A DNA stretch of 50,864 nucleotides from a virus (Duplodnaviria; Heunggongvirae; Uroviricota; Caudoviricetes): IMG/VR virus record IMGVR_UViG_2695420685_000015; one strand, 5' to 3'. Below the pieces are notes generated by a model. It was not told where the DNA came from. It ran no database searches and worked only from the letters and a program-made list of their open reading frames with translations. This document shows positions 10,613 through 28,394 of the stretch, piece after piece; within the stretch, counting starts at the first letter, position 1, and every line of letters begins with the position of its first letter. Position numbers and translations under genes: made by a program.

Positions 10613-10639
10613 AGGTGGTGCATTGCACCACCTTTTTAT
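10613..10639. terminator. bidirectional terminator between UmuD-prime-like gene and apbC
   Basis: aggtggtgcattgcaccacct hairpin then ttttta. Confidence 0.65.
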
Positions 10640-11739
10640 CACACTGCGCGGAATGCGATTTCGCCAGGTATTACTTCACCTTGCCAATACATTTGGGCAG
10701 CAACGCGATCTGCGAGGTCACGATAAATAGCCGTAAATTCGCTATCTGGACGACTAATAACGGTTGGTGTTCCGTTATCCAGATCTTCACGAAGAGAGAT
10801 ATGAAGTGGCATTTGGCCTAACAACTGCGTGTTGTATTTCTCGGCCAGTTTCTGTGCGCCACCGGTGCCAAAAATTGGCTCGTGATGACCGCAGTTACTG
10901 CAAATATGCACACTCATGTTTTCGACGATACCTAGTACCGGCACTTCGACTTTTTCGAACATCACAATGCCTTTCTTCGCATCGATCAGCGCGATGTCTT
11001 GCGGCGTAGTTACCACAACCGCACCAGTTACAGGAATGTTCTGCGCCAGCGTCAACTGAATATCACCAGTGCCCGGCGGCATATCGAGAACGAGATAGTC
11101 CAGATCAGGCCATAGAGTTTCCTGCAACATCTGCATCAGCGCCTTGCTGGCCATCGGTCCACGCCACACCATTGCATTGTCGTCGGTGACCAGATAACCA
11201 ATAGAGTTGGTTGCCAGGCCATGAGACATGATAGGTGCCATGTGAGTACCGTCAGGTGAGGTTGGACGTTGGTTTTCCGCGCCCAGCATGGTTGGAATTG
11301 ATGGACCATAGATATCGGCATCCAAAATACCAACTTTCGCACCTTCAGCAGCCAAAGCCAGTGCCAAGTTTACTGCTGTGGACGATTTGCCTACACCGCC
11401 CTTGCCTGAGCTTACGGCGATAATATTCTTAACACCATTAATGCCTGGTTGGTTTTTGACGCGCTTAAGCGTGGCAATGTTGTACGACAGCTTCCAGTCA
11501 ATAGCCTTTGCGCCAGTGATACGGAGCAGATCACCACTACATTGCTCTTTCAGGTCTTCAAAAGGCTTATTCCACACGAAAGGCATGATTAGTTCGACAT
11601 GCAGTGTGTCATCCATCAACGCAACATGGTGTAACGCTTTAAGCGTAGTCAGGTTGTGTTTCAGGGTTGGGTGCTGAAAATTAGCCAGCGTACCGGCTAC
11701 CATTGCTCTCAGGGCATCCGGCGATTTGGACTCGCTCAT
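10639..11739 (-). CDS. apbC: iron-sulfur cluster carrier ATPase ApbC/Mrp
   Basis: 366 aa; deviant Walker A SSGKGGVGKSSTAVNLA, C-terminal CSNCGH motif; AAGGAGA RBS; from memory near-identical to E. coli Mrp. Confidence 0.95.
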   Translation of the reverse strand: MSESKSPDALRAMVAGTLANFQHPTLKHNLTTLKALHHVALMDDTLHVELIMPFVWNKPFEDLKEQCSGDLLRITGAKAIDWKLSYNIATLKRVKNQPGINGVKNIIAVSSGKGGVGKSSTAVNLALALAAEGAKVGILDADIYGPSIPTMLGAENQRPTSPDGTHMAPIMSHGLATNSIGYLVTDDNAMVWRGPMASKALMQMLQETLWPDLDYLVLDMPPGTGDIQLTLAQNIPVTGAVVVTTPQDIALIDAKKGIVMFEKVEVPVLGIVENMSVHICSNCGHHEPIFGTGGAQKLAEKYNTQLLGQMPLHISLREDLDNGTPTVISRPDSEFTAIYRDLADRVAAQMYWQGEVIPGEIAFRAV

Positions 11740-11896
11740 CCCGTCTCCTTTATTTTAATTTGCGCAATTGTCGCCTTGTAGTGTACTCCAGCTGCGACAT
11801 TTAATCATTTATGAGAAATGCTGTTATCACATGGCAGACATAAGGCCATTTTGTTACTATCAAGCCCCTTTTCACTACAAAGAAGTAATGCCTACT

Positions 11897-13930
11897 ATGA
11901 CCCAAGTCGCGAAGAAAATTCTGGTGACGTGCGCGCTGCCGTACGCTAACGGCTCAATCCACCTCGGCCATATGCTGGAGCACATCCAGGCTGATGTCTG
12001 GGTTCGTTACCAGCGAATGCGCGGCCACGAGGTTAATTTCATCTGTGCCGACGATGCCCACGGTACGCCGATCATGCTGAAAGCACAGCAACTTGGTATC
12101 ACACCGGAGCAGATGATTGGCGAAATGAGTCAGGAACACCAGACTGATTTCGCAGGCTTTAACATCAGCTATGACAACTATCACTCGACGCACAGCGAAG
12201 AGAACCGTCAGTTGTCTGAGCTTATCTATACTCGCCTGAAAGAGAACGGTTTTATTAAAAATCGCACTATCTCTCAGTTGTACGACCCGGAAAAAGGCAT
12301 GTTCCTGCCGGATCGTTTTGTGAAAGGCACCTGCCCGAAATGTAAAGCGCCAGATCAATACGGCGATAACTGTGAAGTTTGCGGCGCGACCTACAGCCCG
12401 ACTGAACTGATCGAGCCGAAATCGGTGGTTTCTGGTGCTACCCCGGTAATGCGTGATTCTGAACACTTCTTCTTTGATCTGCCCTCTTTCAGCGAAATGT
12501 TGCAGGCATGGACCCGCAGCGGTGCGTTGCAGGAGCAGGTGGCAAACAAAATGCAGGAGTGGTTTGAATCTGGTCTGCAACAGTGGGATATCTCCCGCGA
12601 CGCACCTTACTTCGGTTTTGAAATTCCGAACGCGCCGGGTAAATATTTCTACGTCTGGCTGGACGCACCGATTGGCTACATGGGTTCCTTCAAGAATCTG
12701 TGCGACAAGCGCGGCGACACTACCAGCTTCGATGAATACTGGAAGAAAGACTCCACCGCCGAGCTGTACCACTTCATCGGTAAAGATATCGTTTACTTCC
12801 ACAGCCTGTTCTGGCCTGCCATGCTGGAAGGCAGCAACTTCCGCAAGCCGACCAACCTGTTTGTTCACGGCTATGTGACGGTGAACGGCGCGAAGATGTC
12901 CAAGTCTCGCGGCACCTTTATTAAAGCCAGCACCTGGTTGAATCATTTTGACGCTGACAGCCTGCGTTACTACTACACTGCGAAACTCTCTTCGCGCATT
13001 GATGATATCGATCTCAACCTGGAGGATTTCGTTCAGCGTGTGAATGCCGATATCGTGAACAAAGTGGTTAACCTGGCGTCCCGTAACGCTGGCTTTATCA
13101 ATAAGCGTTTTGACGGTGTGCTGGCAAGCGAGCTGGCTGACCCGCAGTTGTACAAAACCTTCACTGATGCCGCTGAAGTGATTGGTGAAGCGTGGGAAAG
13201 CCGCGAATTTGGTAAAGCTATCCGTGAAATCATGGCACTGGCTGACCTGGCTAACCGCTATGTCGACGAGCAGGCTCCTTGGGTAGTCGCAAAACAGGAA
13301 GGTCGCGATGCTGACCTGCAGGCGATTTGCTCAATGGGCATCAACCTGTTCCGCGTGCTGATGACTTACCTGAAACCGGTACTGCCGAAACTGACAGAAC
13401 GTGCGGAAGCATTCCTGAATACGGAACTGACCTGGGATGGCATCCAGCAACCGCTGCTGGGCCATAAAGTGAATCCGTTCAAAGCACTGTATAACCGTAT
13501 CGACATGAAACAGGTGGAAGCATTGGTGGAAGCGTCTAAAGAAGAAGTGAAAGCTACTGCCGCGCCAGTTACTGGCCCGCTGGCAGACGACCCGATTCAG
13601 GAAACCATCACCTTTGACGACTTTGCCAAAGTTGACCTGCGCGTGGCACTGATCGAAAACGCAGAGTTTGTTGAAGGTTCTGACAAACTGCTGCGCCTGA
13701 CGCTGGATCTCGGCGGTGAAAAACGCAATGTCTTCTCAGGCATCCGTTCTGCTTATCCAGACCCACAGGCACTGATTGGTCGTCACACCATTATGGTGGC
13801 TAACCTGGCTCCGCGTAAGATGCGCTTCGGCATCTCCGAAGGTATGGTGATGGCTGCTGGCCCCGGCGGGAAAGATATCTTCCTGTTAAGCCCGGATGCT
13901 GGTGCTAAACCTGGCCACCAGGTTAAGTAA
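11897..13930 (+). CDS. metG: methionyl-tRNA synthetase
   Basis: 677 aa from ATG 11897 (track start 11768 is an upstream extension); [15 protein letters not shown] motif, KMSKS motif, CPKC...CEVC zinc knuckles, C-terminal tRNA-binding domain; from memory ~99% identical to E. coli MetG. Confidence 0.97.
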
Positions 13931-15753: not shown

Positions 15754-15884
15754 GTGTAATTAGCTTAATCAATCAGTTGATAATGGCGGTCACAATTTGA
15801 TTCTTTTCTATAAGAATCCGTTGATCGCCACTACTCTTCTTCCATACCTGCAATCACACCTTTAAATATCAATAGGTTAACGTT

Positions 15885-16640
15885 GTTTATACCAATAATA
15901 AAACAACTAAATAACAGATCAACGAAACGTCAACGCTTTCACCCGATTTGGTCTAAAAAATTGACGTATTCACACATCACTTCTTATACCCGTAATTCTA
16001 CGCAGCAGACAGCGCCACAGCGTCCAATTTTCACCACAGACGACCCAACACACTACCAACAAAAACACACGCTCAAAATCACTCCCATTGCGTTACATAA
16101 CTATATAAACAACTTATTTTCAGCTATAACAAAACAACTAAATAACACACATGCCATTCCCCAAAACAACCAACCTCTTTATGGCAGGCTACCGAAAAGA
16201 CCCACCTCTTCTCCCCAGGCTACCGGACAGCCAACCTAACTTTCACAGGCAATCCGAAAACATTCATACGCGCGATACCCACGACACGCCATTCCCCAAA
16301 CAGCGAAGAAACACCAGAATCACTGAAAACCCAACGAAGCCTGTAACCGCAAGGATTCTCTCAATCCCAAAAGACACGAAACATAACAATCACGGGAAAC
16401 GCCATTACCCAATACACGAATAACTACAAAAGCCCTTCACACACTCCAGACAAACAACTCAAACACAATAACGAAAGGATTCGCCCACCTGCCATTACTC
16501 CATACATGGAGAAGAACAATCACCAAAACGACGAGAACACCCCATAGAAGAACCACCGCAAAACGAACGAAACCACATACACCGACAGAGAAAACAACAC
16601 ACCCAATTCACCAACAGAAATAGTCGCCGTATAGAACATT
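15885..16640 (+). other. A+C-rich strand-asymmetric ORF-free tract (candidate noncoding RNA or structural DNA element)
   Basis: About 75-80% A+C on the + strand over ~760 bp in sampled 60-nt blocks; no ATG-initiated ORF; internal short repeats (aaaacaactaaataaca twice, ccattccccaaa twice). Confidence 0.6.
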
Positions 16641-16736
16641 CTGGAAGGAGTGAGCATTAACGCCTATAGAGAGGTTGAGACAGATAAAACACAACATGCA
16701 TAGCGAAGAAGCCAGGTATGTATAAGTGGGGAGGGA

Positions 16737-16759
16737 AGGAGGGGTGTCGCCTCCTTTTT
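16737..16759 (+). terminator. rho-independent terminator downstream of A+C-rich tract
   Basis: aggaggggtgtcgcctcct hairpin followed by tttt. Confidence 0.55.
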
Positions 16760-16822
16760 CGTATTTATTCAACTCCTGATTTTATCCCCCGTAACACCCC
16801 TACGGTCAGCCTTCGGTCCATA

Positions 16823-16960
16823 CAGGGAAAAGGCTGCATCCCGCTACAGAAACGGCTGGGTTGCCTTCGGGGAACGGCTGGAGGTTTTCAGGGAAACGGT
16901 CGAGTTGCCTGTGTGGATTTCGGGAGAAGGCTCGATGCCGGTTCAGGAACGGTGGCGTAC
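16823..16960. repeat. iteron-like direct repeat cluster (core GGAAACGGC)
   Basis: cagggaaaaggctgcatccc, cagaaacggctggg, gggaacggctgga, gggaaacggtcgag, gggagaaggctcga, caggaacggtggcg at about 21-30 bp spacing. Confidence 0.6.
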
Positions 16961-17257
16961 CGGTATAGCGAGAGGGAGAGTTGCGGCTACCCACCTGTAA
17001 TGTGCGGGAAGAAGAGAGGCGCTCACGTAGGCGGACTTGCTTACCGCTGGATTCCCTCTGAATGCCCAGCTACAGCGTAATTGTGCCAGACAGCCAACGG
17101 GTCACAATCGATTTCAGTAGGTTTTCGGGGAGAGGATTATTCTGCCCACCAGCCACTAAATCAGAATAATGTAAAAAGTGTACTCGGTACTGAACCTGAA
17201 AACTCACTACCAAAACCACATTCACCGGAATAAAATCCTTTTTCGCCTGTGCGTTAT

Positions 17258-17292
17258 TGCGATAATAACACCATCAAGAAAACATGTTGTTT
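17258..17292 (+). promoter_or_regulatory. class-A promoter/operator copy 6
   Basis: TGcGATAAT then AGAAAACATGTTGTTT at 17277-17292; first in-frame ATG 17284 lies inside the motif. Confidence 0.55.
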
Positions 17293-17304
17293 AAGGATTG
17301 CTTT

Positions 17305-17634
17305 ATGTTTGCAAATATCGACATCAACCAAATCAAGAAATTAACTCAAAAAGAGTTTGATCAGTTTTATGAGTTAGAAGGTTGGTCTTCCACTCTGATC
17401 AATTCGCGGTGGGTGCTTGAGCTGATGACTCGTGATGACGCACCTGCTTTGATGATTTGCGACATGGGTGAAGATGCTGACTTTATGGATATGAGCGAAT
17501 TTTGTGTGGACACATACAACCGCAGCCAGAAGTACTACTTCACATGCGATAGCGAAAATGACGTGATTTCTAAGGTCTATCTTCACCTCGTCCAGCATTG
17601 GGACGTTCAGGAGTTTCTTGAGATATTCGCGTAA
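17305..17634 (+). CDS. hypothetical protein
   Basis: Second in-frame ATG with AAGGAT RBS; 109 aa. Confidence 0.5.
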   Translation: MFANIDINQIKKLTQKEFDQFYELEGWSSTLINSRWVLELMTRDDAPALMICDMGEDADFMDMSEFCVDTYNRSQKYYFTCDSENDVISKVYLHLVQHWDVQEFLEIFA

Positions 17635-17740
17635 TCCCAACCAAAGCCAGCATTGCTGGCTTAATTTCTCTATAGCCGCTGGGAGGAACCTGCATATCGA
17701 TCATGCACCTGATCATTATGCTTTGTAGCCGTTTTCTTAC

Positions 17741-17776
17741 TGGTATTATTTACGCCATTGAGAAAACAAGTTGTTT
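17741..17776 (+). promoter_or_regulatory. class-A promoter/operator copy 7
   Basis: TGgTATTAT then AGAAAACAAGTTGTTT at 17761-17776. Confidence 0.55.
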
Positions 17777-17787
17777 ACGGAGTTGTG

Positions 17788-18099
17788 ATGAAAAAATCAT
17801 TGGTTCTTGGTCTGGACAAAGACCAGAAGAGAAAAGAGAAGCCTGCACTGGTTGCTCAATTAACTTTGCTAGACATCGTTGCCAATGGAACTTCTATTCG
17901 TCTGTTCCGTGAAACAGCGGTGTCTTTCGATAAAAACACCTTTACTCGTTATGTAATGAATGTTCGTCGCCAGCGTGGAAAAGGATGGGTGGCATTTCAA
18001 AGAATGTGGCCGGAACATCAGCTCGAACTGGCCTTGATGGAAGTTAACCGCGTGGCCCAGCAAGAAATTCAGAGAGCATCAGTGATGGCAATAGCCTGA
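17788..18099 (+). CDS. hypothetical protein
   Basis: ATG 17788 with ACGGAG RBS (track start 17758 is TTG inside the promoter); 103 aa. Confidence 0.5.
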   Translation: MKKSLVLGLDKDQKRKEKPALVAQLTLLDIVANGTSIRLFRETAVSFDKNTFTRYVMNVRRQRGKGWVAFQRMWPEHQLELALMEVNRVAQQEIQRASVMAIA

Positions 18100-18133
18100 T
18101 AATGTGCAAGTGGTAATTAGTCGACAGTACGAC

Positions 18134-18161
18134 AGCCCCGCCATCCTTACGGGGCTTTTTT
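18134..18161 (+). terminator. rho-independent terminator
   Basis: agccccgccatccttacggggct then tttttt. Confidence 0.7.
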
Positions 18162-18166
18162 GTATT

Positions 18167-18182
18167 GTAAGTACATACTTAC
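18167..18182. promoter_or_regulatory. class-B palindrome copy
   Basis: gtaagtacatacttac perfect palindrome, 44 nt upstream of ATG 18226. Confidence 0.45.
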
Positions 18183-18225
18183 GATCATAGAATATAAAAA
18201 TAACCAATACACTACGGAGAGTGAA

Positions 18226-18621
18226 ATGACCGTTAAACGCGAAAAACTGACAGTTGATGTTTACTATGCCTCTGAAACCGCCGAAGGTAAGAATGTGGCA
18301 AAAATCACCGTTGTTACGTACAACACCGAAACTGGTGCCGAAGTCCAGGCCAGTACGATCGTGCGTAAAGGTGATGCCTCCGGCGGCGAGTACGCGACTC
18401 AATACCAGTCCATTCTCGATGCAACTGACCCGCTGCTGCTGAAAATCGAGAACTACTTCCGCCAGGTTGATGAAGAGGTGTTTGAAACCATGATGAATAT
18501 GGTTAACACCGTATTCGCCTCCAGCCTGAACACCAGCACCACCTGGATTGGCCAGTACGGTCTGCGCATTACCTCTGGCATTCCTGCCGGCACCTTAATC
18601 CCTGAAAGCGTATTCGCTTAA
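18226..18621 (+). CDS. hypothetical protein
   Basis: ATG 18226 with GGAGAG RBS; 131 aa; terminator downstream. Confidence 0.5.
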   Translation: MTVKREKLTVDVYYASETAEGKNVAKITVVTYNTETGAEVQASTIVRKGDASGGEYATQYQSILDATDPLLLKIENYFRQVDEEVFETMMNMVNTVFASSLNTSTTWIGQYGLRITSGIPAGTLIPESVFA

Positions 18622-18631
18622 TCCTCTTTGA

Positions 18632-18658
18632 ATGGCGCGTAAACCGCGCCATTTTCTT
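18632..18658 (+). terminator. rho-independent terminator
   Basis: atggcgcgtaaaccgcgccat then tttctt. Confidence 0.65.
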
Positions 18659-18667
18659 ATGCCCGAT

Positions 18668-18730
18668 AACAATTTGTTTTCTGCCTTTATCTCGCTGCGA
18701 TAATTACAACAACAAGAAAACAACATGTTT
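18668..18730 (+). promoter_or_regulatory. class-A promoter/operator copy 8 (both palindrome copies)
   Basis: AACAATTTGTTTT at 18668-18680, TGcGATAAT, AGAAAACAACATGTTT at 18715-18730. Confidence 0.55.
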
Positions 18731-18749
18731 ACGCAGTGAGGATATGCTC

Positions 18750-19031
18750 ATGACTGATTTCACCATTACCACCAAAGCACAAAATGTATTCCTCGAATCA
18801 TGGCTGGACTTGCCGGAAACAGAACAGCAAGAAATGGATCATGTGGATTATGATGAGCAGGTAAGCACGCGATTCTTCCACTTTGAGGGATGCGTTTACG
18901 ACATTGCCGACTTCATGCGAGATGACCGCTTCCCTGAATGGCACGCAAGCTATCCACTAAACGCCTTTGCCATGCTGATGATCCGTGTGGATGATTCAGG
19001 GGATACCATCGACATCGGTCTGCTCCACTGA
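18750..19031 (+). CDS. hypothetical protein
   Basis: Second ATG (18750) has GAGGAT RBS at proper spacing; 93 aa. Confidence 0.5.
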   Translation: MTDFTITTKAQNVFLESWLDLPETEQQEMDHVDYDEQVSTRFFHFEGCVYDIADFMRDDRFPEWHASYPLNAFAMLMIRVDDSGDTIDIGLLH

Positions 19032-19081
19032 AGAATAAGGTCACCAATGCTGGTGGCCTTAAATGACCATCCTGCTTCCCT

Positions 19082-19160
19082 CAGGCTAAAAACACCAACC
19101 TCTTACCTCCAGGCAACCGACAAACCCACCTGTTCCCGTCCGGCTACCGCAACTTTCCAC
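19082..19160 (+). repeat. partial second copy of the A+C-rich tract
   Basis: caggctaaaaacaccaacctcttacctccaggcaaccgacaaacccacct...ggctaccgcaactttccac resembles 16185-16246 (caggctaccgaaaagacccacctcttctccccaggctaccggacagccaacctaactttcac). Confidence 0.5.
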
Positions 19161-19182
19161 TTTGACGCCTTATTCGTACAAC

Positions 19183-19215
19183 GATAATTAACACAAACAA
19201 GAAAACAATTTGTTA
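19183..19215 (+). promoter_or_regulatory. class-A promoter/operator copy 9
   Basis: GATAAT at 19183-19188 then AGAAAACAATTTGTTA at 19200-19215. Confidence 0.55.
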
Positions 19216-19235
19216 TTTACGATAAGGAATTAATC

Positions 19236-19718
19236 ATGAATTTTATCGCTACTGTAAACGCACCCGCACATGGCAATATCGCTGTAACGTTCTCTGACAT
19301 TGAAAAACGAGTACTTGGTGCATGGCGCGACAATGAGACGGTAGAACTGTCAGCACAAGAAAAATGCATTATTGCACGCGACATCATTGGCAATCGTCGT
19401 TACTCGCGGGTATTTGAGAAAGCGTATGTGGTAAATTCTGGATTCGGAACGTTCGTCTTTCCGGTGCGCTCCGGGCGATTCTGCCAGTCCAAGCTGATTG
19501 AGTTCGCTACGCAGATTTCTTTCTGGATTAAAACTCAATCGTCGTTCAAATTTTCCGACGATGAAGCAGTATCGCAGGGGATGCGGATCGCCAACAATGC
19601 GATTAAATGCAAAAACATTACGTATACCGCTGGCGTTGACACATGGAAACTGTTTTGCGCTAACTTTATGCTGAATGTATACGCAAGCAACCGCATCCAC
19701 ATCCTTGATGGCGTGTAA
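19236..19718 (+). CDS. hypothetical protein
   Basis: ATG with AAGGAAT RBS; 160 aa; terminator-like hairpin agggccagaaacggccct downstream. Confidence 0.55.
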   Translation: MNFIATVNAPAHGNIAVTFSDIEKRVLGAWRDNETVELSAQEKCIIARDIIGNRRYSRVFEKAYVVNSGFGTFVFPVRSGRFCQSKLIEFATQISFWIKTQSSFKFSDDEAVSQGMRIANNAIKCKNITYTAGVDTWKLFCANFMLNVYASNRIHILDGV

Positions 19719-19726
19719 CTGAGAAG

Positions 19727-19856
19727 AGGGCCAGAAACGGCCCTTTATCTATAGCCACCAGCTGCCGCAGGGAAATTTTCAGAAACGGCGAGGAAAGCAT
19801 TCATGAGCCGACGGGAAACGGCCAGGATTTTTTCGGGAAACGGCTGCATTCGCCTT
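19727..19856. repeat. second iteron-like repeat cluster (GGAAACGGC family)
   Basis: ccagaaacggccc, cagggaaattttcagaaacggcgagg, cgggaaacggccagg, cgggaaacggctgcattcgcc; last unit closely matches cagggaaaaggctgcatccc at 16824. Confidence 0.55.
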
Positions 19857-20304
19857 TATGTAGAAAAAACATCGGGAAGCTGGTGGAATCCAACCAGCGG
19901 TTGTCGGACAGGTGAGCGGGGAAAATTATGATGACTTTCGTCGCCTGAGACATCCAGATTTCTTTCGTAGCATAATCACATACGTGATTAAGTGGTGTGA
20001 TTATGTGAAAAATCACGCGCACATAATACGCGAGCGGATACGGAACAAAACAAAATGCCGATCCGCGCCGACAAATAAACGCGGATCATAAAGCAAGACT
20101 AAAAGCCAATGATTAACCATACTCTATAGCGCAATATAACGCGTTTTAAGCGCGTTAATGTGTTAAGTAATGGGTATGTACTGGTAAGGATATAAAAGCG
20201 CGTCTATGGCGTTATTTTGGCGCTTATTTTTATGTTGTTGGAGTGAGTTAAAGACAATAAAAAACGCGCTAATGATGGCGCGTTATGGTGGGAGTATTGG
20301 AAAC

Positions 20305-20335
20305 GAAAAAAGCGCCCATAGTGGGCGCTCGATTT
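20305..20335 (-). terminator. terminator with conserved AGCGCCCA-yrT-GGGCGCT hairpin
   Basis: aaaaaagcgcccatagtgggcgctcgatttta; A/T runs on both sides; same stem sequence recurs at 20806-20824. Confidence 0.6.
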
Positions 20336-20565
20336 TATTTGTGTAAACTGATTTTAAATCCCATTTCTACAAACGCTTTTAACATTAAAAATATATCAGC
20401 GTCGTTCACGTCTGCTTTTTTTCGCTCCTGGTCGCTCAATAAGTCAATTTTGCGCGTCGTTTCATCTATAAGCTCGACTGCGCGCCCAGCGTAACCAGCG
20501 ATCCCAGCGATGCGATTAACATAATATTCATTATGGACGTTAACGCCAGCGATAAGAACAAACAT
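20335..20565 (-). CDS. hypothetical protein
   Basis: ATG with AAGGAG RBS; 76 aa; AT-rich local composition. Confidence 0.55.
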   Translation of the reverse strand: MFVLIAGVNVHNEYYVNRIAGIAGYAGRAVELIDETTRKIDLLSDQERKKADVNDADIFLMLKAFVEMGFKISLHK

Positions 20566-20584
20566 GATTAAGCTCCTTAAAAAA

Positions 20585-20788
20585 TTAAATAGAATTTTGA
20601 AGTTTTCCGATTAATGCGCTTAAACGTAAGTATTCACGTTTGCGCTTGCAATCTCGCTTGCTGTTAAGCAAATCAGAAAACGTAAAATTTAATTGGTCGC
20701 GTTGCGCGATCAAATCATCGATTAATTCCAGTTTATAAGCGCGATACTTTGCGCGATATTCCGCGCGGATCTTGTCATAGCTGACCAT
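20585..20788 (-). CDS. hypothetical small basic protein
   Basis: Start moved to second ATG (20788) with AAAGGAG RBS because the track N-terminus runs through the conserved hairpin; 67 aa. Confidence 0.5.
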   Translation of the reverse strand: MVSYDKIRAEYRAKYRAYKLELIDDLIAQRDQLNFTFSDLLNSKRDCKRKREYLRLSALIGKLQNSI

Positions 20789-20805
20789 CTTTAAAGCTCC
20801 TTTAA

Positions 20806-20824
20806 AGCGCCCACTATGGGCGCT
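20806..20824 (-). repeat. second copy of conserved hairpin AGCGCCCAyTrTGGGCGCT
   Basis: agcgcccactatgggcgct between genes 20837-21487 and 20585-20788. Confidence 0.5.
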
Positions 20825-20836
20825 TGATTCCATTTA

Positions 20837-21487
20837 TTACGCTTTGAAAGCATCAGCTAAATAATTGTAGAAATCATTTTTAATGAAGCGATATTGCTGA
20901 GTACCAGCTTTCGCGCTCCCAGCTCCTTTGACTTTTTCAACAAGTCCAAGACGTTCGCAAAGATTGATCAACTGGTTGGCTTGAGTATAGCCAGCGTCCA
21001 ATTTAATTTCACACGCTTTTTTAGCTTCATTCATTAAATCGAAAACAGCGCCATTGGTGAACGTGTCGATCTCGTCGTTAATCATATCGATTAAAGCGAA
21101 TACACGAGATCCTGACATATCAGCGATGGAATAAACGCATTTACCAGATTTAATTGATTTAACCAGATAAACCAGTTTTTCCAGAGAATAACTATTAGTC
21201 ATTGCATCACGGAAAAATACTTCTGGCGCTTGTTTGCTTGCTTTAATCGCATAGTAGAAAACAGAGCATAATTTTTCGTCTTCTACTGCGTTTACGACGT
21301 TGTTGATGAAGTAAGCAAGTTTAGTGGTCGCAGCTTGCATATTTGCTTTGTCTGCTTTAGTGTGCGTACCATTTTTATAATGTTCGTTATATGTTTGAGT
21401 TGCCAGATCTGCTTTTTCGCGCAGTTCATCGGATACAATGGAAGCAGCTTCAATGATGGATTTTTTAGAAATGATAATGTTAGCCAT
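20837..21487 (-). CDS. hypothetical protein, possible C-terminal winged-helix DNA-binding domain
   Basis: ATG with AAGGAAAAA RBS; 216 aa; C-terminal LINLCERLGLVEKVKGAGSAKAGTQQYRFIKN looks winged-helix-like (weak). Confidence 0.5.
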   Translation of the reverse strand: MANIIISKKSIIEAASIVSDELREKADLATQTYNEHYKNGTHTKADKANMQAATTKLAYFINNVVNAVEDEKLCSVFYYAIKASKQAPEVFFRDAMTNSYSLEKLVYLVKSIKSGKCVYSIADMSGSRVFALIDMINDEIDTFTNGAVFDLMNEAKKACEIKLDAGYTQANQLINLCERLGLVEKVKGAGSAKAGTQQYRFIKNDFYNYLADAFKA

Positions 21488-21734
21488 GATAATTTTTCCT
21501 TATGTAAATTTAAAATTTATTGTCGTTAGCGTCTTCGCTTTCGACGAGTTCAATTATCGATACGCGAAAAAAGATTGCAAGTGTTTTTTTTAAAATTTTT
21601 TGCAGGGATGAAAGTCCTAGAAATAAAAGCGAGATCGTCGAAGGTGTTCCCTAAATAAATAATCGATTGCGGCTTTAGACCTTATATATATTTAGGTTAT
21701 TTGATTTGTAGATATAAAGAAGTGATGTGAAAAA

Positions 21735-21758
21735 TAATAACCGGACTTAGCCGGTTAT
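21735..21758 (-). terminator. rho-independent terminator (minus strand)
   Basis: aataaccggacttagccggttatt with T-run on the minus strand. Confidence 0.6.
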
Positions 21759-21771
21759 TAACCTTATAGAT

Positions 21772-22080
21772 TTATTGAACAGACTCTACAGCCTTACGAT
21801 TGGTGTCAAATAGCGCATCAACGAACTGTGCCGATGACTCGCTAGATTCGCAATCCAACATTGCCCTTTCTTCATTTGCCACTTTCTTACACAGTTCCAC
21901 ATTCTCACCTATCGCTTTTCCTGCTTTTACGGCTGCCGAAAATTGATACATGCAAACTGATACATTCTGAGACGTTGAGCACACGTCATTCATCAGCGAC
22001 TGAATGACAGGCTTATAGTCCATTGCATTTGCCGCAACTGAGCAAAGTAAAAATAATGGTGGTAACAATATCGATTTCAT
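21772..22080 (-). CDS. predicted secreted/periplasmic protein
   Basis: N-terminal signal peptide MKSILLPPLFLLCSVAANA; 102 aa. Confidence 0.55.
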   Translation of the reverse strand: MKSILLPPLFLLCSVAANAMDYKPVIQSLMNDVCSTSQNVSVCMYQFSAAVKAGKAIGENVELCKKVANEERAMLDCESSESSAQFVDALFDTNRKAVESVQ

Positions 22081-22083
22081 AAC

Positions 22084-22608
22084 TCAAAAAGGCAAAATTC
22101 GTTCAACCCAATCGAACAAAACAACTATTTTTCTACCGTTCTCGACACGTAGTGTAACCTGACAAGCATCTGCGCCTGCTGACACCCCCTCAATTTCACG
22201 GCCATCCGCCATGTACACCCTTATAGATTTGTTTGCTTTGTAGGCTTGGTTGCAAATTGCAAAAAAATCGCGGCGTGATGGCCGATTATCGACATAATCA
22301 GGGTGAACTGTTAGTCGACCTTTGAAATCGTGAGCGATACTGTCAACCACACCTGATTCAATTGTACTAATGCGTTCAAGTGGGAGCCTTATACGATTTT
22401 CTTTGTCAAAAGGGGCTGGGCAAAGGTCAACTTTGTTACGAGATGGCATGAGGCCATAAACGTACATGCAAAACGCCTGGCCATCTTCGAGAGTGACCCT
22501 TACAGGAATTTGTTCTCTGCGCCAGAACATCAGTAGTTTTTCAACGTTAGTGTAATCTCGCGGCCAGAGTTCAGCTTGGATACCGTAGGTAATATCTTTG
22601 GTTGTCAT
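22084..22608 (-). CDS. hypothetical protein
   Basis: Start set at MTTKD ATG 5 nt after upstream stop (track start 22686 overlaps upstream gene); 174 aa. Confidence 0.5.
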   Translation of the reverse strand: MTTKDITYGIQAELWPRDYTNVEKLLMFWRREQIPVRVTLEDGQAFCMYVYGLMPSRNKVDLCPAPFDKENRIRLPLERISTIESGVVDSIAHDFKGRLTVHPDYVDNRPSRRDFFAICNQAYKANKSIRVYMADGREIEGVSAGADACQVTLRVENGRKIVVLFDWVERILPF

Positions 22609-22612
22609 GTCA

Positions 22613-23077
22613 TCACAGAGTTGTTGGCAGAATGTCGATGTCACCAGAATTGCTGGTGAACACCCTGAACGCTTTTGTGTCTCCATTCTTCAGAGTCGTT
22701 TCTCGCTCTTGACGAGCGGGGTTTAGAGCACATAAACCTGCACCTTCAAGAGATGCACCCACAATTAATTCTCCGGCATTTAAATGGAAAGTCGCTTTTT
22801 CGCCTGTAGCCAGTTTTGCGACAGTTTCGCCGTTGATGAAAATGGAAGCATCACATCCAGCTCCTACAAAACCTGTGTCTCTCATTACCACCAACGTAGC
22901 TGGCGCTGCGCTTTGATACTTGAACACTTTGGCCTGCGGTGCTGGTTTGGCGTCATGGATTGATATTGGGCGTGATTGGCACGCGGTAAGCATCAACACT
23001 GGTAACGTTAGTAGAGGGAGAAGCGAGTATTTCATGATAGTTTTAGAACAGAAAGTGAACAGTATGGGAGACTTCAT
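22613..23077 (-). CDS. predicted lipoprotein
   Basis: MKYSLLPLLTLPVLMLTAC signal peptide with LTAC lipobox; start may be ATG 23035 rather than 23077. Confidence 0.6.
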   Translation of the reverse strand: MKSPILFTFCSKTIMKYSLLPLLTLPVLMLTACQSRPISIHDAKPAPQAKVFKYQSAAPATLVVMRDTGFVGAGCDASIFINGETVAKLATGEKATFHLNAGELIVGASLEGAGLCALNPARQERETTLKNGDTKAFRVFTSNSGDIDILPTTL

Positions 23078-23103
23078 CTTTGTCTCCCTAATTGATAGCG
23101 TGA

Positions 23104-23382
23104 TTATTTTAATCTGCTTAATAGCGTTTCGAGATCTTCCTTTGTCATATTAGAGTTCTCATAGATACGCATGATTTTCTCACGAGTCTTAGCGGAAGCC
23201 CCGACAGAAGATATAACCTTGTCAAAGTCGGCCATTGTCAATTGTTCCAGAATGGTATTTATGACTTCAGCCTTAGACATTTTGATATTTTTTTCTTTTA
23301 GTTTCACTTGAAACTTTCCAAGTTTGTCATTGGCCTTATCAGACAATGCTACCTGACAATAAGTTGTTTTCTTTTCGCTCAT
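23104..23382 (-). CDS. small hypothetical protein, possibly ribbon-helix-helix DNA-binding
   Basis: 92 aa, immediately downstream of helicase; N-terminal beta-strand plus helix pattern is only suggestive. Confidence 0.4.
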   Translation of the reverse strand: MSEKKTTYCQVALSDKANDKLGKFQVKLKEKNIKMSKAEVINTILEQLTMADFDKVISSVGASAKTREKIMRIYENSNMTKEDLETLLSRLK

Positions 23383-23384
23383 AA

Positions 23385-24944
23385 CTAATCTCGTTTCAGA
23401 ACTCCAAAATCGAATGCTCCATCAATAGGCAATACACCTTCTGCAAAGCCAGGTGTGGTGTCGATGATGTGTTTTCGCTCATAAGAGTGAGACAACAGGT
23501 ATTTGTTGCTAATGTCAATGAAATCAGTGATAAAACACACGTTTGCCTGATTTTTTTTGGCTCGTAAGCCACGACCGACACGCTGCCTCATTTCAACTTC
23601 TGCTTTCCCACCACCAGCAAGAATGACCGCACCAACGCTTGGCACATCAACACCGACATCCAGAATAGTCGAGCCTATTAAAACATCTATTTCTCCAGAC
23701 GCTAAACTGTTCAGCTTTGCTTGCCTTGTCGCCTGGTTAGATTCCCCATAGATGAAGTCAACTCTAAGGCCGGACTCTTTCATCATTTCCATCAGGATTT
23801 GCCCGTGGCGTTTAAGACGAACCAGAGTCATACAATTGAGAGAATGTTGCTTATAGAGCAATGCTTCGCGAACAATGGCCTCGTTACGTCCCAAATTATA
23901 CACGATCCCCAACTGATAAGCCTTTTGGTAGGCGGTGCTCATACCAACTCTAAAATTGAGGTGTTTGTTGGCAAGTTCGGCCTTGATTCTGGCCTCGTCT
24001 GGCTTGTAGGCAACTTTATGATAAAGGAAGTACGGCTTTGCCAGAATGCCTCGATCAATCAGGTACTTTTCTGTGACTTTAATTTCAATTCGCCCGGCCA
24101 CCGCCATCAGGCGCATGTTGGCTTCCGTCGAATCCTTCATGAACGGCGTGGCTGTAAGCGCCAGACGATAGTCTGCGTTCACACATAATCTGGCGATGTC
24201 ATAGAAATTTGAGCCTGAAGACTCATGCGCCTCTTCCAGAATAAGAAGAGAGACACTTGAAAGGAAGCGTTTCACCAACTCCCGACGTTTGAGGTGGTAG
24301 CTTTTCTTATCTGGTGTTGCATCGCGTGGTGGTTCTTCGAGGAAACTTGCAAGAGTTTGAACTGTAGCGACGTTGATATGTCGTGATACCTGGAACTCAC
24401 CCGAGCCAATGACTCCAACCTTTTGGTCTTTTAACCACGGTTCGCCATTTTCGGCGCGGTAGTCGATGGATCTCTGGAAGTTTTCGGCCATTTGAAACAT
24501 CAGAACAGAGCGGGTTGTTAAAAATAATGTCATTCGACCGATACGTGCAGCTGCTTTGCAGGCAACGTTAGATTTCCCGCCACCAGTAGCGATCTGCGCA
24601 ATCATCATTCCCTCTCGAACCAGTGTTTCCACAGTCTGATCCTGATACGCATAATCAGGATTGTATGGGAATGGGTTAACCGCCGGATTTGGTTTACCAA
24701 GCGCCGGGGCTTTGTCTTTGCGGATATGAACACATTTGATGCCCGCCTTGTTCAAGTTCGCCGCTACAGGCTTGGCAAAGCCAGCAGGGAACGAGTTTTT
24801 ACTCCAGTTGAACATCGTGCTTGTGCCCTTCCAGTCGCCAGTCTCGACTTCGTAGCTCAACATTTGCTGCACCAGTTGCTTTACCTTGTCATCTGCGCCA
24901 GAAATAAGCGCATTTACTGCGTTAGATACAATCCGAACAGTCAT
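23385..24944 (-). CDS. superfamily-2 DEAD/DEAH-type helicase
   Basis: Walker A ATGGGKS, motif II LILEEAHES, motif III LTATP, motif VI QRVGRGLR; AAGGAAAGAGG RBS. Confidence 0.85.
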   Translation of the reverse strand: MTVRIVSNAVNALISGADDKVKQLVQQMLSYEVETGDWKGTSTMFNWSKNSFPAGFAKPVAANLNKAGIKCVHIRKDKAPALGKPNPAVNPFPYNPDYAYQDQTVETLVREGMMIAQIATGGGKSNVACKAAARIGRMTLFLTTRSVLMFQMAENFQRSIDYRAENGEPWLKDQKVGVIGSGEFQVSRHINVATVQTLASFLEEPPRDATPDKKSYHLKRRELVKRFLSSVSLLILEEAHESSGSNFYDIARLCVNADYRLALTATPFMKDSTEANMRLMAVAGRIEIKVTEKYLIDRGILAKPYFLYHKVAYKPDEARIKAELANKHLNFRVGMSTAYQKAYQLGIVYNLGRNEAIVREALLYKQHSLNCMTLVRLKRHGQILMEMMKESGLRVDFIYGESNQATRQAKLNSLASGEIDVLIGSTILDVGVDVPSVGAVILAGGGKAEVEMRQRVGRGLRAKKNQANVCFITDFIDISNKYLLSHSYERKHIIDTTPGFAEGVLPIDGAFDFGVLKRD

Positions 24945-24986
24945 AAACCTCTTTCCTTAGTGCCTTTTGTATGTTATTTGGCTATT

Positions 24987-25007
24987 ATAATAAGTAAGTG
25001 ATTACAT
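24987..25007. promoter_or_regulatory. class-B-like element in divergent helicase/ParB region
   Basis: ataataagtaagtgattacat, 20 nt upstream of ATG 25027. Confidence 0.35.
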
Positions 25008-25026
25008 AGTGGATTGTAGCAATAAA

Positions 25027-25707
25027 ATGGATGTAAAAATCACGATTTTGCAGGTTGATGTTGCCAACCTTCGCCCGAATACCTGGAACACCAATTCGGT
25101 TGGTGCGCAGAATTTTGAAAAACTGAAAGGTTCTATCGAAAAATTGGGCTTTTTTAAGCCAATTTTGGCTCGTGAACTTGAAGATGGATTTTTTGAAATC
25201 CTCGGCGGCGAACATCGCTGGCGTGCTGCTATTGAGCAAGGAATTTCAACGGTTCCGGTGCTTTCTGTGGGCAAAATTAGCGATGTCGTAGCTAAACAGA
25301 TGTCACTGGTGGACAACGAGCGATACGGTGAAGACGACCAAATCGCATTGCAACGCTTCATTGAAGAAATTCAGTCAGAACTTGACTATCAACTGTCTGA
25401 AATCGCCCCGTATGACGACGAAATCTCGATGGTTTTAGCAAAAGAGGCGGCAATCGACCTTGAAGCACTGGAGGCGTTGTCTCGTGGTAGTGATGAGCCT
25501 GTCGATACCGACAAACGAGAGAAAACCGAACGTGTGGGTGCGGAACATCAGACCATGCGCTTCAAAGTAACTTTCGATGCGTCAGATCGTGTTGCAGAAA
25601 CCATAAAAAACATCATCAAAGAGCAGGCTATTAACACCGGTAATGAAATGGAGAACGCTGGTGAGGCTCTGGTGTGGCTGGTCGACTACTACAAGGAGCG
25701 TATGTAA
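25027..25707 (+). CDS. ParB-like nuclease-domain protein 1
   Basis: ParB/Srx N-domain pattern KPILARELEDGFFEILGGEHRWRAAIEQGISTVPV; start ambiguous (GTG 25009 or ATG 25027). Confidence 0.6.
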   Translation: MDVKITILQVDVANLRPNTWNTNSVGAQNFEKLKGSIEKLGFFKPILARELEDGFFEILGGEHRWRAAIEQGISTVPVLSVGKISDVVAKQMSLVDNERYGEDDQIALQRFIEEIQSELDYQLSEIAPYDDEISMVLAKEAAIDLEALEALSRGSDEPVDTDKREKTERVGAEHQTMRFKVTFDASDRVAETIKNIIKEQAINTGNEMENAGEALVWLVDYYKERM

Positions 25708-26375
25708 TGACCAAAAAGTTTGAAATCGTATATCGCGACCCGGCAGATCTTATTCCCTATGAGATGAATGCCAAAAAGCATGATGAACAGCAGATCCGAG
25801 ATCTAGCCGCAGCCATTAAAAAGCGCGGATTTGACCAGCCAATTACGGTCGATAAGAACGACGTAATTATTACTGGCCACGGCCGCCGTGAGGCTGCAAT
25901 TTTTGCTGGACTTGAGCGCGTACCGGTTATTGTTCGCGATGATCTCAGTGATGACGAGGTTCGTGCGAAGCGCCTTGAAGATAACCGACTTGCCAGCATT
26001 GATTACGATGCAATTAAGCTACAGAAAGAGCTTGAGTCGCTTGTTCTGGACGATATCGAGGTTTTCGGCTTTGAAGAGCGTGAGTTGAATGTTCTCGTTG
26101 GCAGTATGACAGAAGAAATGGACACCGACTCGCTAGTTATCGATCTTGGCGAAGAAACTAAACGACAGAAGGATGAACACACCGAGATCAGTCGTGAAGT
26201 TGCAGCGGAAGAAGTACGTGTTGTCGACGTATTGGGCTTTAAAACGCTCCCTGCTGGCTCTGCCATTGTTGTTGGTGATTTGCTTGCCCACATGGAAGAA
26301 ATGACGGGAGAAAGCGGGGTAGACGCATTTGTGGCATATGCGGAGAAGATCTCTTCCGGGGAGATGGCTGCATGA
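25707..26375 (+). CDS. ParB-like nuclease-domain protein 2
   Basis: ATG overlaps upstream TAA; ITVDKNDVIITGHGRREAAIFAGLERVPVIV fits the ParB GxxRxxA box. Confidence 0.6.
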   Translation: MTKKFEIVYRDPADLIPYEMNAKKHDEQQIRDLAAAIKKRGFDQPITVDKNDVIITGHGRREAAIFAGLERVPVIVRDDLSDDEVRAKRLEDNRLASIDYDAIKLQKELESLVLDDIEVFGFEERELNVLVGSMTEEMDTDSLVIDLGEETKRQKDEHTEISREVAAEEVRVVDVLGFKTLPAGSAIVVGDLLAHMEEMTGESGVDAFVAYAEKISSGEMAA

Positions 26376-27037
26376 GCAAATACATCATCAACGTATCGTT
26401 TCAGACACGCGTAAATAAAACCACGCGCACGTTGGAAATCGCTGAGTCGTTCGGGCTTGGCCTGGACGAAAAAGAGTGGACGCTTTACGACAATCTGGAG
26501 CTGGAAGTGAAGCAGGGCGATGTGGTGTACATCACCGGCCAATCCGGTTCCGGCAAATCCGTTGTGCTGCGCGAGTTGCAACGACAGATGAAGGATGAAG
26601 GGCTGTCTGTAGCCTCCATCGATGATTTTACCTTCGATAATGAGGTTAACGTCATCGATCAGTTGGGCAAAACGACCAGTGATGCGCTTGGGTTGTTATC
26701 TATGGCTGGTCTGAACGATGCATATCTGTTTGTTCGCAAGCCTTCTGAAATGTCAGACGGCCAGAAATATCGTCTCAAGATTGCCAAACTGATTGAGTCA
26801 GGCGCTAAAGTGTGGGCTGCTGACGAGTTCGGCGCTGTTCTCGACCGTGTAACCGCTCAGGTTGTGGCGTCTAACCTCCAGCGTGCCGCTCGAAAGGTTG
26901 GTGCGACGGTAATGGTGGCGACGACTCACGAAGACCTGAAGAACGCGCTGCGCCCGGATATGCAGATCACCAAGCACTACAAAGAACGCGTGAAGGTGGA
27001 ATATCACAATGGTAGTCACGATGAGGTCCATTCATGA
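26372..27037 (+). CDS. ABC-type P-loop ATPase
   Basis: Walker A GQSGSGKS, signature-like MSDGQKYRLKIA, Walker B VWAADEFG; 221 aa; coupled ATGA start. Confidence 0.65.
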   Translation: MSKYIINVSFQTRVNKTTRTLEIAESFGLGLDEKEWTLYDNLELEVKQGDVVYITGQSGSGKSVVLRELQRQMKDEGLSVASIDDFTFDNEVNVIDQLGKTTSDALGLLSMAGLNDAYLFVRKPSEMSDGQKYRLKIAKLIESGAKVWAADEFGAVLDRVTAQVVASNLQRAARKVGATVMVATTHEDLKNALRPDMQITKHYKERVKVEYHNGSHDEVHS

Positions 27038-27924
27038 CGGACATCATCATTAAACGCTACCGCCCTGAAGAGTTTCCGCGTCATCTGGACTTTCTGGAGC
27101 GAATGACTGTTACAAAGGGAACTGTAGAGGACTGGCACGCTCTTAAGTCGCTTCACTACAAAACAGACGGCAAACCTTTCGCGCCAACTTACTATCGCTG
27201 CGAACTTGATGACCGTCTGGTGGGCGTCGTGGTTATGGCTTACCCGAAACTACTGTTGGCACCTCGCCACCGCATGTTTCCTAAGTTGAAACCAACCACT
27301 AATACCACCGTGGCTAACCAGTACTGGGGTCGGTACGTGAATAACAACTTTGCGGTGATCAGTCGCTCAGTTGTGGATACTCAGTATCGTGGCGTAGGCG
27401 TCTCTTATCGAATGATTAACCTGGTTAGCAGGATGCATGACCGGCCAATCATTGAGATCCAGTCCTCGATGAGCAAATACAATCCCTTCGCCATGAAAGC
27501 AGGGTTTAAGTTCATCCGCCCTGAGCGACCGAAGAGCTATGAAAGTGCACTGCGTGTATTCCAGCGCCATTTCCGTTCCGACCCGGGTGATAACGAGGCG
27601 ATCGTCAAAGAGTTGTTCGCAATGAGCGAGTCTCGTCGTCGCCGTGCACTGCGTGATCTGGTGGCGGACTACCACAAGAACAGTTCCCTGGCAAAAGCTG
27701 GGCGGAATCGTGGCACGACGATTCAGGACATTGCCGACAGTCTGGTGGACGAGGCCAGCATTGTGAAGTTGCTCAAGGACATTCACAACCTGAGCTTTAC
27801 GTCTCCGTTGTATGGGGTGTATCGAAACCCTGACTTTGGTCGTCGACTGCCTGACACGCTGCCACTGCTGGCATTCGACAAACAACCTTTGGATAAACCG
27901 TTAGAAATTGCTTTACCGGCATAA
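27034..27924 (+). CDS. hypothetical protein (possible acetyltransferase-like N-terminal region)
   Basis: 296 aa; YRGVGVSYRMINLV loosely resembles GNAT motif A; weak. Confidence 0.45.
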   Translation: MTDIIIKRYRPEEFPRHLDFLERMTVTKGTVEDWHALKSLHYKTDGKPFAPTYYRCELDDRLVGVVVMAYPKLLLAPRHRMFPKLKPTTNTTVANQYWGRYVNNNFAVISRSVVDTQYRGVGVSYRMINLVSRMHDRPIIEIQSSMSKYNPFAMKAGFKFIRPERPKSYESALRVFQRHFRSDPGDNEAIVKELFAMSESRRRRALRDLVADYHKNSSLAKAGRNRGTTIQDIADSLVDEASIVKLLKDIHNLSFTSPLYGVYRNPDFGRRLPDTLPLLAFDKQPLDKPLEIALPA

Positions 27925-27933
27925 GGATTTGCC

Positions 27934-28200
27934 ATGACGTTAACCGATAAACAAAAGGACATCATCAAAACGCTCAATCTCGGTTATGAGCGAGGTCATC
28001 TACTTGATCTGGACGAATTGCTTGAAGTTTTGCCGTACAAGACAACCAAGCAAAGTATCCAGTTCTCAATTCGCGCTCTGATAAAAAAGGGGCTTGTGGA
28101 GAAAGGGCATACGCGCCAACGCAGTGACAATCGCTATCACCGCCGAACTCTTGGGTTAACCACTTTAGGTCGAGCCAAAGCGAAGTTACTGGTGATGTAA
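27934..28200 (+). CDS. small putative DNA-binding protein
   Basis: 88 aa, basic C-terminal half, AAGGAT RBS. Confidence 0.45.
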   Translation: MTLTDKQKDIIKTLNLGYERGHLLDLDELLEVLPYKTTKQSIQFSIRALIKKGLVEKGHTRQRSDNRYHRRTLGLTTLGRAKAKLLVM

Positions 28201-28244
28201 TCGGTCTGGGAGCTTATTTAAAGACCTGCTTCTGTATATAAATA

Positions 28245-28259
28245 ATAAGTAACTTATTA
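28245..28259. promoter_or_regulatory. class-B palindrome copy
   Basis: ataagtaacttatta upstream of terminase promoter region. Confidence 0.4.
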
Positions 28260-28313
28260 AATATATACGGAAGCAGGCTTAATAAGACATGCCCAGACCT
28301 AATTAAACAACCC

Positions 28314-28386: not shown

Positions 28387-28394
28387 AGGGATCT

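Follow-up and report, generated by a model that had tools for sequence, protein, structure and literature searches.

What are two clusters of short direct repeats, lying about 2.9 kb apart in non-coding DNA on either side of five small genes (g1 to g5), doing in a phage that is also a plasmid? The question is raised by IMG/VR record IMGVR_UViG_2695420685_000015, a Caudoviricetes sequence of 50,864 nucleotides (the window, to which coordinates refer unless another record is named) that belongs to an SSU5/pHCM2-type phage-plasmid whose full element is about 108 kb. A first-pass annotation had noted the two clusters and had suggested that they might be replication iterons or packaging sites and perhaps the recombinogenic borders of a cassette. 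The clusters are real, non-random, phased, confined to one strand, conserved, unique in the genome and distinct from the iterons of the element's RepA replicon. They are probably conserved binding sites for a sequence-specific DNA-binding factor and, by analogy with other replicons, may possibly be the two halves of a cis-acting element for RepA-independent replication or maintenance.

Both clusters are built from copies of the motif ttCrGGGAAAcGGCtGG, with six at 16826-16953 and four to six at 19733-19882, all on the + strand. Units were placed by reading the sequence and by a window scan for GGAAACGGC allowing at most one mismatch, giving the following layout:

16826 to 16953, + strand: array 1, with cores starting at 16826, 16848, 16870, 16892, 16923 and 16945 (spacing 22, 22, 22, 31 and 22 bp)
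17305 to 19718, + strand: five-gene block, comprising g1 (17305-17634), g2 (17788-18099), g3 (18226-18621), g4 (18750-19031) and g5 (19236-19718)
19771 to 19882, + strand: array 2, with full units at 19781, 19814 and 19836 (spacing 33 and 22 bp) and partial units at 19771 and 19874

The last two units of array 1 (16923 and 16945) are degenerate. The second cluster had been credited with three or four units, and those at 19781, 19814 and 19836 stand, but the first of the set, at 19733, consists of the loop and 3' stem of a terminator-like hairpin that follows g5 (hairpin core 19728-19743) and may not be a true unit. Likewise, repeated and phased units are indeed present, although the spacing of 21-30 bp initially ascribed to them is too loose: the dominant distance is exactly 22 bp, and the others are 31-34 and 42-48 bp. 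The reported near-identity between the clusters was borne out, with 14 of 15 positions shared by 16825-16839 and 19835-19849 (repeat family D8). The arrays are therefore direct and degenerate, not inverted, and they are tandem repeats in helical phase, within the 17-22 bp by which iterons are recognized.

Chance is a poor explanation for this arrangement. The window holds 24 matches to GGAAACGGC at the same mismatch threshold, against 11.1 +/- 3.2 expected. In 1000 first-order Markov simulations of the window, same-strand clusters never contained more than two matches, as opposed to the two clusters of four that were observed, and not one pair of matches fell exactly 22 bp apart, as opposed to four observed pairs.

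Comparison with relatives points in the same direction. Both arrays, with the same core and phase, are found in PhiR41_1, Salmonella phage SSU5, two Klebsiella lineages, a Buttiauxella plasmid and dozens of IMG/VR contigs, while Yersinia pestis pMT1 has array 2 only. Among 89 distinct units, the information resides in approximately 10-11 positions, G-GAAA(C/A)GG(C), and the spacers vary by lineage. Adjacent units lie 22 bp apart in 141 pairs across the relatives (the rest are separated by 31-34 or 42-48 bp), and the number of units changes in 22-bp steps, as in two loci (L022 and L006) with one unit fewer in array 1. In the most distant relative found, the core is still GGAAACGGC despite protein identities of 50% for g5, 49% for a neighboring 216-residue protein (m3), about 65% for the ParB-like proteins and 71% for UvsW, which implies that the motif is read either by a host factor or by a protein with a nearly invariant DNA-contact surface. 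Taken together, the alignments support purifying selection on the arrays.

The motif is also sparing in its distribution. Within NZ_CP070135, a complete relative of 108 kb, motif clusters occur solely at these two sites, and a genome-wide short-word search for other arrays recovered the RepA iterons and array 2 and was otherwise noisy. A two-unit pattern scan of bacterial genomes yielded, among the matches listed, scattered hits in unrelated taxa that look like chance. Iterated, phased, same-strand sites are typical of sequence-specific DNA-binding proteins, and to that extent the term iteron-like is apt.

A second setting for the same core was uncovered by an exact IMG/VR scan for GGAAACGGC-N13-GGAAACGGC, which returned 100 loci. 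About two-thirds are SSU5-like, and about one-third are unrelated contigs of up to approximately 60 kb that have nothing else in common with the window. The pattern thus has two genuine settings among these loci, SSU5-like elements and, in lambdoid prophages, an origin that lies within an O-like gene. In some 33 lambdoid prophage contigs (L012, L016, L020, L025, L065, L100 and about 27 more IMG/VR loci), GGAAACGGC occurs four or five times on one strand, mostly in 22-bp phase, inside a gene, where the repeats encode PNGNG peptides and are followed by an AT/GATC-rich stretch of ACAGATC-rich DNA. The gene product falls in the PHROG family annotated as "replication initiation O-like" (PHROG 9773) and combines a new N-terminal domain with a C-terminal half homologous to lambda O. 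From sequence and context, these repeats are genuine lambdoid origin iterons and, with their shared core and phase, they show that an array of this kind can serve as an origin.

The likeness to the lambdoid sites has clear limits. The O-gene iterons, of which Klebsiella phage ST405-OXA48phi1.2 provides an example, have the identical 9-mer on a single strand and mostly the 22-bp phase of the arrays. However, each lambdoid unit reads as a complete palindrome, GGAAACGGC-N6-GCCGAAT, in which the right half is strongly conserved, and lies inside the initiator gene ahead of the AT/GATC-rich stretch, whereas the phage-plasmid units lack the right half, are non-coding and form two clusters. Outside the 9-mer, a lambdoid position matrix scores the phage-plasmid units at -25.8, the null at -23.1 and the lambdoid units at +15.1. 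A full lambdoid O-type origin was accordingly rejected for the arrays, which have no right half-site, no coding role and no O-like protein in the window and the tested relatives. It should also be borne in mind that the 9-mer was itself the search pattern, and coincidence at the level of one family is plausible.

The immediate surroundings of the arrays are well defined, and the following features were recorded:

16733 to 16760, + strand: intrinsic terminator (terminator scan) at the end of an A+C-rich stretch, some 65 bp ahead of array 1, with a hairpin conserved in every lineage
16761 to 16822: spacer from that terminator to the first unit, conserved in an alignment of 32 distinct related sequences, with an A/T-rich start (CGTATTTATTCAAcTCCTGATTTTATCCCCCGTAAC...)
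17146 to 17153, - strand: Chi octamer (GCTGGTGG), non-coding, between array 1 and g1
19049 to 19056, + strand: Chi octamer inside a hairpin downstream of g4
19728 to 19749, + strand: terminator-like hairpin for g5, GGGCC-agaaac-GGCCC then TTTATC, read from the sequence and absent from the terminator-scan list
19755 to 19762, - strand: Chi octamer just left of the array 2 core units, also present in Klebsiella lineages
19879 to 19886, + strand: Chi octamer overlapping the degenerate last unit of array 2
20059 to 20088, - strand: terminator (terminator scan); array 2 sits between it and the g5 hairpin

Both arrays are non-coding, and each lies directly 3' of a + strand terminator or terminator-like hairpin. 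With array 2 also placed between convergent terminators, little transcription should cross either array. A hairpin equivalent to the one after g5, with a GGAAAC loop, is found in the SSU5, Klebsiella and Yersinia relatives. An open reading frame (ORF) at 16718-17080, annotated over array 1 in some records, was ruled out as coding by a 22-bp indel in relatives, and ORF calls over this array vary in length between records. The DNA 3' of array 1 has a GC content of 58-59% and only short A/T runs.

Chi is present 12 times in the window (10352, 17146, 19049, 19755, 19879, 23611, 30958, 39823, 42660, 42908, 45983 and 47075) versus 1.1 expected, an approximately ten-fold excess, and four of these octamers fall in non-coding sequence of the array region. 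Nearly every lineage has a + strand Chi immediately to the right of array 2, at positions that cannot be aligned with one another, a pattern that suggests selection for the presence of the octamer. Such a site would fit nearby DNA ends or recombination-dependent replication and does not separate the hypotheses considered below.

Replication in the wider element bears directly on the interpretation of the arrays. The known plasmid replicon lies elsewhere:

53.8 to 55.6 kb of NZ_CP070135 (L008 13800-15560): RepB/RepA replicon, with at least 15 GTATGCTGTCAGCGGTAA iterons on both sides and GATAGATCC repeats, in a P1/RepFIB-like layout

This initiator is about 34 kb from the arrays, and its flanking iterons are unrelated to them in sequence. 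With no rep gene between the arrays and no DnaA boxes, the plasmid-origin form of the iteron proposal does not hold. The element also encodes its own helicase, primase and Pol III alpha, together with a T4-like set comprising UvsW, UvsX/RecA, UvsY, gp32 and SbcCD proteins, and a start of phage-mode replication distinct from RepA is therefore to be expected. No repeat array was found near the helicase-primase module.

It is in this setting that the two-part cis-acting element is put forward, as a tentative proposal. One sequence-specific protein would bind both arrays at the DNA level. Head-to-tail units every two helical turns would place the bound protein on one face of the helix, giving two nucleoprotein complexes about 2.9 kb apart, and a candidate role is as an origin for the phage mode (lytic or auxiliary) or as sites that control it. 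Such a design would be akin to that of P4 ori/crr, SPP1 oriL/oriR and P1 incC/incA, in which one repeat is used at two separated places. The proposal draws, at low confidence, on the non-randomness of the arrays, their 22-bp phase, the retention of the core while spacers diverge, the change of unit number in 22-bp steps, the restriction of motif clusters to these two sites in NZ_CP070135, the non-coding position behind terminators, the lambdoid precedent and the element's need for a start of replication in its phage mode.

Several observations weigh against such an origin. No DnaA box (at most one mismatch) occurs within 1 kb of array 1 or 700 bp of array 2, no IHF consensus was found near the arrays, and neither array is adjoined by a clear AT-rich unwinding element. 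GC skew tracks the direction of transcription and gives no origin signal, and searches of the window and of the tested relatives with tblastn and hmmsearch detected nothing related to the lambdoid O N-terminal domain. The T4-like character of the replication genes points to R-loops or recombination, not iterons, as the means of initiation. Finally, in Y. pestis CO92 pMT1 (L237 36270-38800), array 2, g4 and g5 are kept and IS1541 adjoins g4, while the locus has no array 1, no g1-g3 and no upstream early region; the pair of arrays is thus not essential for plasmid maintenance.

The block between the arrays had been read as a cassette of four genes delimited by recombinogenic repeats. Five genes were found, and the cassette reading failed, as did the related idea of a transposon. 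The arrays are direct and degenerate, they and g2, g3 and g5 are syntenic in 36 of 36 scorable related loci (38 loci have both arrays in range), and the comparison with relatives that had been proposed as a check, made with a query of the two outer flanks joined, revealed 0 of 461 plasmid records in which these flanks are adjacent. What does vary is the content of individual positions. Single genes are swapped for alleles of 35-78% identity beside neighbors at 98-100% (loci L024, L086, L061 and others). For example, one contig matches the window at 98% for g1, 100% for g2, 35% for g3, 78% for g4 and 99% for g5, and many relatives carry IS200C or two extra ORFs between g3 and g4. This mosaicism implies recombination at the conserved promoter and terminator linkers, and the variation of the block is allele exchange in a fixed frame, not cassette mobility.

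The linkers themselves are regular: upstream of each of g1, g2, g4 and g5 stands a conserved element, GCGATAAT, and then a palindrome, AAGAAAACAnnTTGTTTAC, and most block genes have a terminator-like hairpin at their 3' end. The encoded proteins have 93-160 residues; g2 (pI 10.5) and g5 (pI 9.2) are basic and g1, g3 and g4 acidic. All five fall in PHROG families of unknown function, and neither Pfam nor PDB sequences gave a match or a Rep-like fold. The two basic proteins were modelled with AlphaFold, and comparison of the predicted g2 structure gave only generic alpha+beta matches. A g2 hairpin, VRRQRGKGWVA, looked AP2-like by eye and was discarded when profile comparison, against a manually entered AP2 alignment, gave a probability of 0.3%. 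PDB sequence searches with a 409-residue upstream protein, g2 and g5 were empty. Thus g2 is a weak candidate for the array-binding protein; TerS, the two ParB_N proteins described below and the small proteins of the - strand operon are further candidates, and the 216-residue protein (20837-21487) and a ribbon-helix-helix-like protein of 92 residues (23104-23382) also come into consideration.

A 15-17-bp palindrome, AGAAAACAAnTTGTTTTCT, is dispersed genome-wide, mostly tens of bases upstream of start codons. Its sites in the window are at 568, 1297, 2011, 4921(-), 14014, 14065, 16107(-), 17278, 17762, 18665, 18716, 19201, 22119(-), 23357(-), 28315 and 28340, and it also occurs in the rest of NZ_CP070135 (L008), with examples upstream of a parA-like gene, nrdB and a helicase gene. 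It looks like a genome-wide operator, reminiscent of the scattered P1 C1 operators, or a 5'-UTR (untranslated region) hairpin.

With respect to the wider map, + strand genes run from the left end of the window to 19718 and are followed by a short - strand operon (20335-24944). Beyond 24944, the + strand is again in use for two ParB_N proteins (25009-26375), ABC-type ATPases, a putative small terminase TerS (28395-29027), the large terminase TerL (29027-30283) and virion genes. The 3.3-kb stretch around the arrays is 97% identical to Escherichia phage Cyrano (pLF82) and matches 557 plasmid records, almost all of them non-mobilizable and mostly from Escherichia, Klebsiella, Enterobacter and Salmonella. 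The order UvsW-like helicase (- strand), ParB_N, ABC-type ATPases, TerS and TerL, which spans 23385-30283 in the window, is shared with Pseudomonas phage nickie (L115 1600-9400), a lytic Nickievirus of 112 kb, where TerS is about 32% identical to that of the window; no such arrays occur at the syntenic place. A module order common to lytic Pseudomonas phages indicates that the pre-terminase module is old and is not specific to phage-plasmids.

Four further features of this neighborhood deserve mention. Upstream of array 1, about 800 nt at 15880-16700 have an extreme strand bias, with a + strand rich in A and C and poor in G and T (GC skew near -0.5, AT skew as high as +0.6), and the bias ends at the terminator just before the array; the corresponding region of SSU5, Klebsiella pJN2-26 and PhiR41_1 is similarly biased (A+C 65-78%). 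The ORFs at 15883-16239 and 16151-16423 are probably artefacts of stop-poor sequence. For the stretch itself, a Rho-loading region, a protein sponge or a long RNA lacking structure can be envisaged. To the right of array 2, after the last - strand gene, 19960-20335 contains several perfect inverted repeats (CATAATCACA ... TGTGATTATG) and three successive - strand terminators and may encode small RNAs; a weak isrK-like Rfam match at 20259-20328 (E = 0.43) is far below the family threshold. Within the - strand operon, 22084-22686 encodes a protein with a full Flag1_repress domain (FljA, repressor of phase-1 flagellin) and a weak Hfq-like match, kept in all relatives and in pMT1. Finally, a divergent apbC(mrp)/metG gene pair at 10639-13930 looks like captured host DNA, the two genes being divergent neighbors on the E. 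coli chromosome too.

How, then, does a non-RepA replication or maintenance element compare with other functions that a DNA-binding protein could perform at these sites? It remains the leading candidate among readings that are all doubtful. Behind it, and unlikely, is the view that a repressor-like protein at both arrays blocks read-through or loops the 2.9-kb block, insulating or co-repressing five early or accessory genes. The arrays sit at the two margins of a block whose genes have separate promoters, and each directly follows a terminator or a hairpin resembling one; this placement would suit such a boundary, as would the joint inheritance of arrays and block in all scorable loci and an orientation that lends itself to pairing by a multimeric protein. 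However, an operator-like palindrome already serves four of the five genes individually, 350-480 bp separate the arrays from the nearest promoter of the block, no regulator was identified, and pMT1 makes do with array 2. Rather less likely, and on a par with each other, are a packaging (pac) site and a centromere. Repeated terminase-binding motifs flanking the cut region are typical of pac and cos sites, including those of P1, SPP1 and lambda cosB, and TerS might bind the repeats, with the first headful cut made in or beside one array. TerL is T4-like (Terminase_6N), a type that usually implies headful packaging, so some pac site must exist; an unchanging motif would fit the conservation of TerS, whose first 174 residues share 88-91% identity between lineages, and the Chi octamers flanking array 2 could curb RecBCD damage where the DNA is cut. 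Yet the arrays lie 8.6 and 11.5 kb upstream of terS, when pac is normally (if not universally) in or next to that gene, and terS itself has zero copies of the motif. Two arrays rather than one would also be unusual for a pac site, the resemblance to lambda R sites comes down to a single 7-mer, TerS is not Nu1-like, and the Pseudomonas phage with the same gene order does without arrays.

For a centromere, the arrays would be ParB-type loading sites for segregation or condensation, acting through ParA and a small partner or through the two ParB_N proteins. Two groups of direct repeats do resemble pB171 parC1/parC2 and R1 parC, the ParB_N proteins are encoded 5 kb to the right, and the region upstream of the parA-like gene contains, across the family, one palindrome and no repeat array. 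Nevertheless, parA is about 40 kb away, when small ParA systems normally have adjacent centromeres, and in this the arrays depart from a type Ib or type II plasmid centromere; moreover, the ParB_N genes belong to a pre-terminase module also present in lytic Pseudomonas phages that have no arrays, and pMT1 lacks array 1. A motif acting at the RNA level on read-through transcripts, recognized by CsrA (through GGA motifs) or by the FljA/Hfq-like protein, is improbable. All units are on the block-gene strand, most contain GGA, and an RNA-binding-type protein is encoded nearby, but terminators or terminator-like hairpins precede the arrays, conservation is highest at AAACGG and not at GGA, and three units have no GGA at all. 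A structured or known RNA was rejected, with no Rfam match at the arrays and a consensus fold showing little beyond the terminator hairpins. The least probable reading, and a very remote one, is cross-talk, in which the arrays would be half-site mimics that bind the lambdoid O initiator, either as a decoy against a competitor or borrowed for the element's own replication. It would be an origin-level interaction between unrelated temperate phages, and the confinement of the GGAAACGGC pair pattern, in the IMG/VR scan, to SSU5-like elements and lambdoid origins as real contexts, along with the overlap in host range implied by a lambdoid phage that infects Klebsiella, speaks for it. Against it, the lambdoid palindrome has a conserved right half, the phage-plasmid flanks score no better than random DNA, and the shared 9-mer may be the family-level coincidence already described.

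Whatever their role, the arrays are a previously unannotated feature and a variant on the iteron theme, with no adjacent initiator and with two parts, each behind a terminator. A literature search retrieved no mention of the repeats and no account of where SSU5-like phages have their termini or origins, and in the literature searched the cis-acting sites of the family are unmapped beyond the RepA replicon, including the phage-mode origin, the pac site and the centromere. Phage-plasmids of the SSU5/pHCM2/pMT1 type are common in clinical E. coli, Klebsiella, Salmonella and Yersinia, and they carry resistance genes. Among sites in the genome that lack an assignment, the arrays are the clearest candidates of the protein-binding type; they are conserved family-wide and easy to delete, to clone and to use as bait. 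Identification of the partner protein would assign one of the missing functions (phage-mode origin, pac or centromere) and, were the partner one of the small block proteins with no recognizable fold relatives, would define a new DNA-binding family. Should the arrays turn out to be the sites of an ordinary regulator, their value would be that of useful annotation only.

Among known systems, lambda cosB was the comparison first suggested for the arrays. CGTTTCC is the core of the lambda R sites bound by gpNu1, and the array units do share this 7-mer (as GGAAACG). However, the lambda R sites are of mixed orientation, surround an IHF site and adjoin cosN and the Nu1 gene, whereas the array units all point one way, have no IHF consensus and lie 8.6 kb or more from a TerS with no Nu1 or other Pfam match; a lambda-type cosB was therefore rejected. 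The centromeres of pB171 (parC1/parC2) and R1 (parC) consist of direct repeats in two clusters and, like the arrays, bracket genes with short repeats, but they bracket or precede the par genes themselves. The incC/incA and RepFIB iterons come closer in layout, as phased direct repeats of about 20 bp in two groups that flank coding DNA and vary in copy number, although the coding DNA in those replicons is a rep gene and that between the arrays is not. P4 ori/crr, SPP1 oriL/oriR and T4 oriE (with its iterons and small RepEA/RepEB genes) are repeat-based phage origins, and by analogy the arrays would resemble them in using one short repeat, in clusters kilobases apart, in a phage with its own replication proteins. 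In those systems, P4 alpha and SPP1 G38P are known binders, whereas for the arrays both a binding partner and a replication role are putative.

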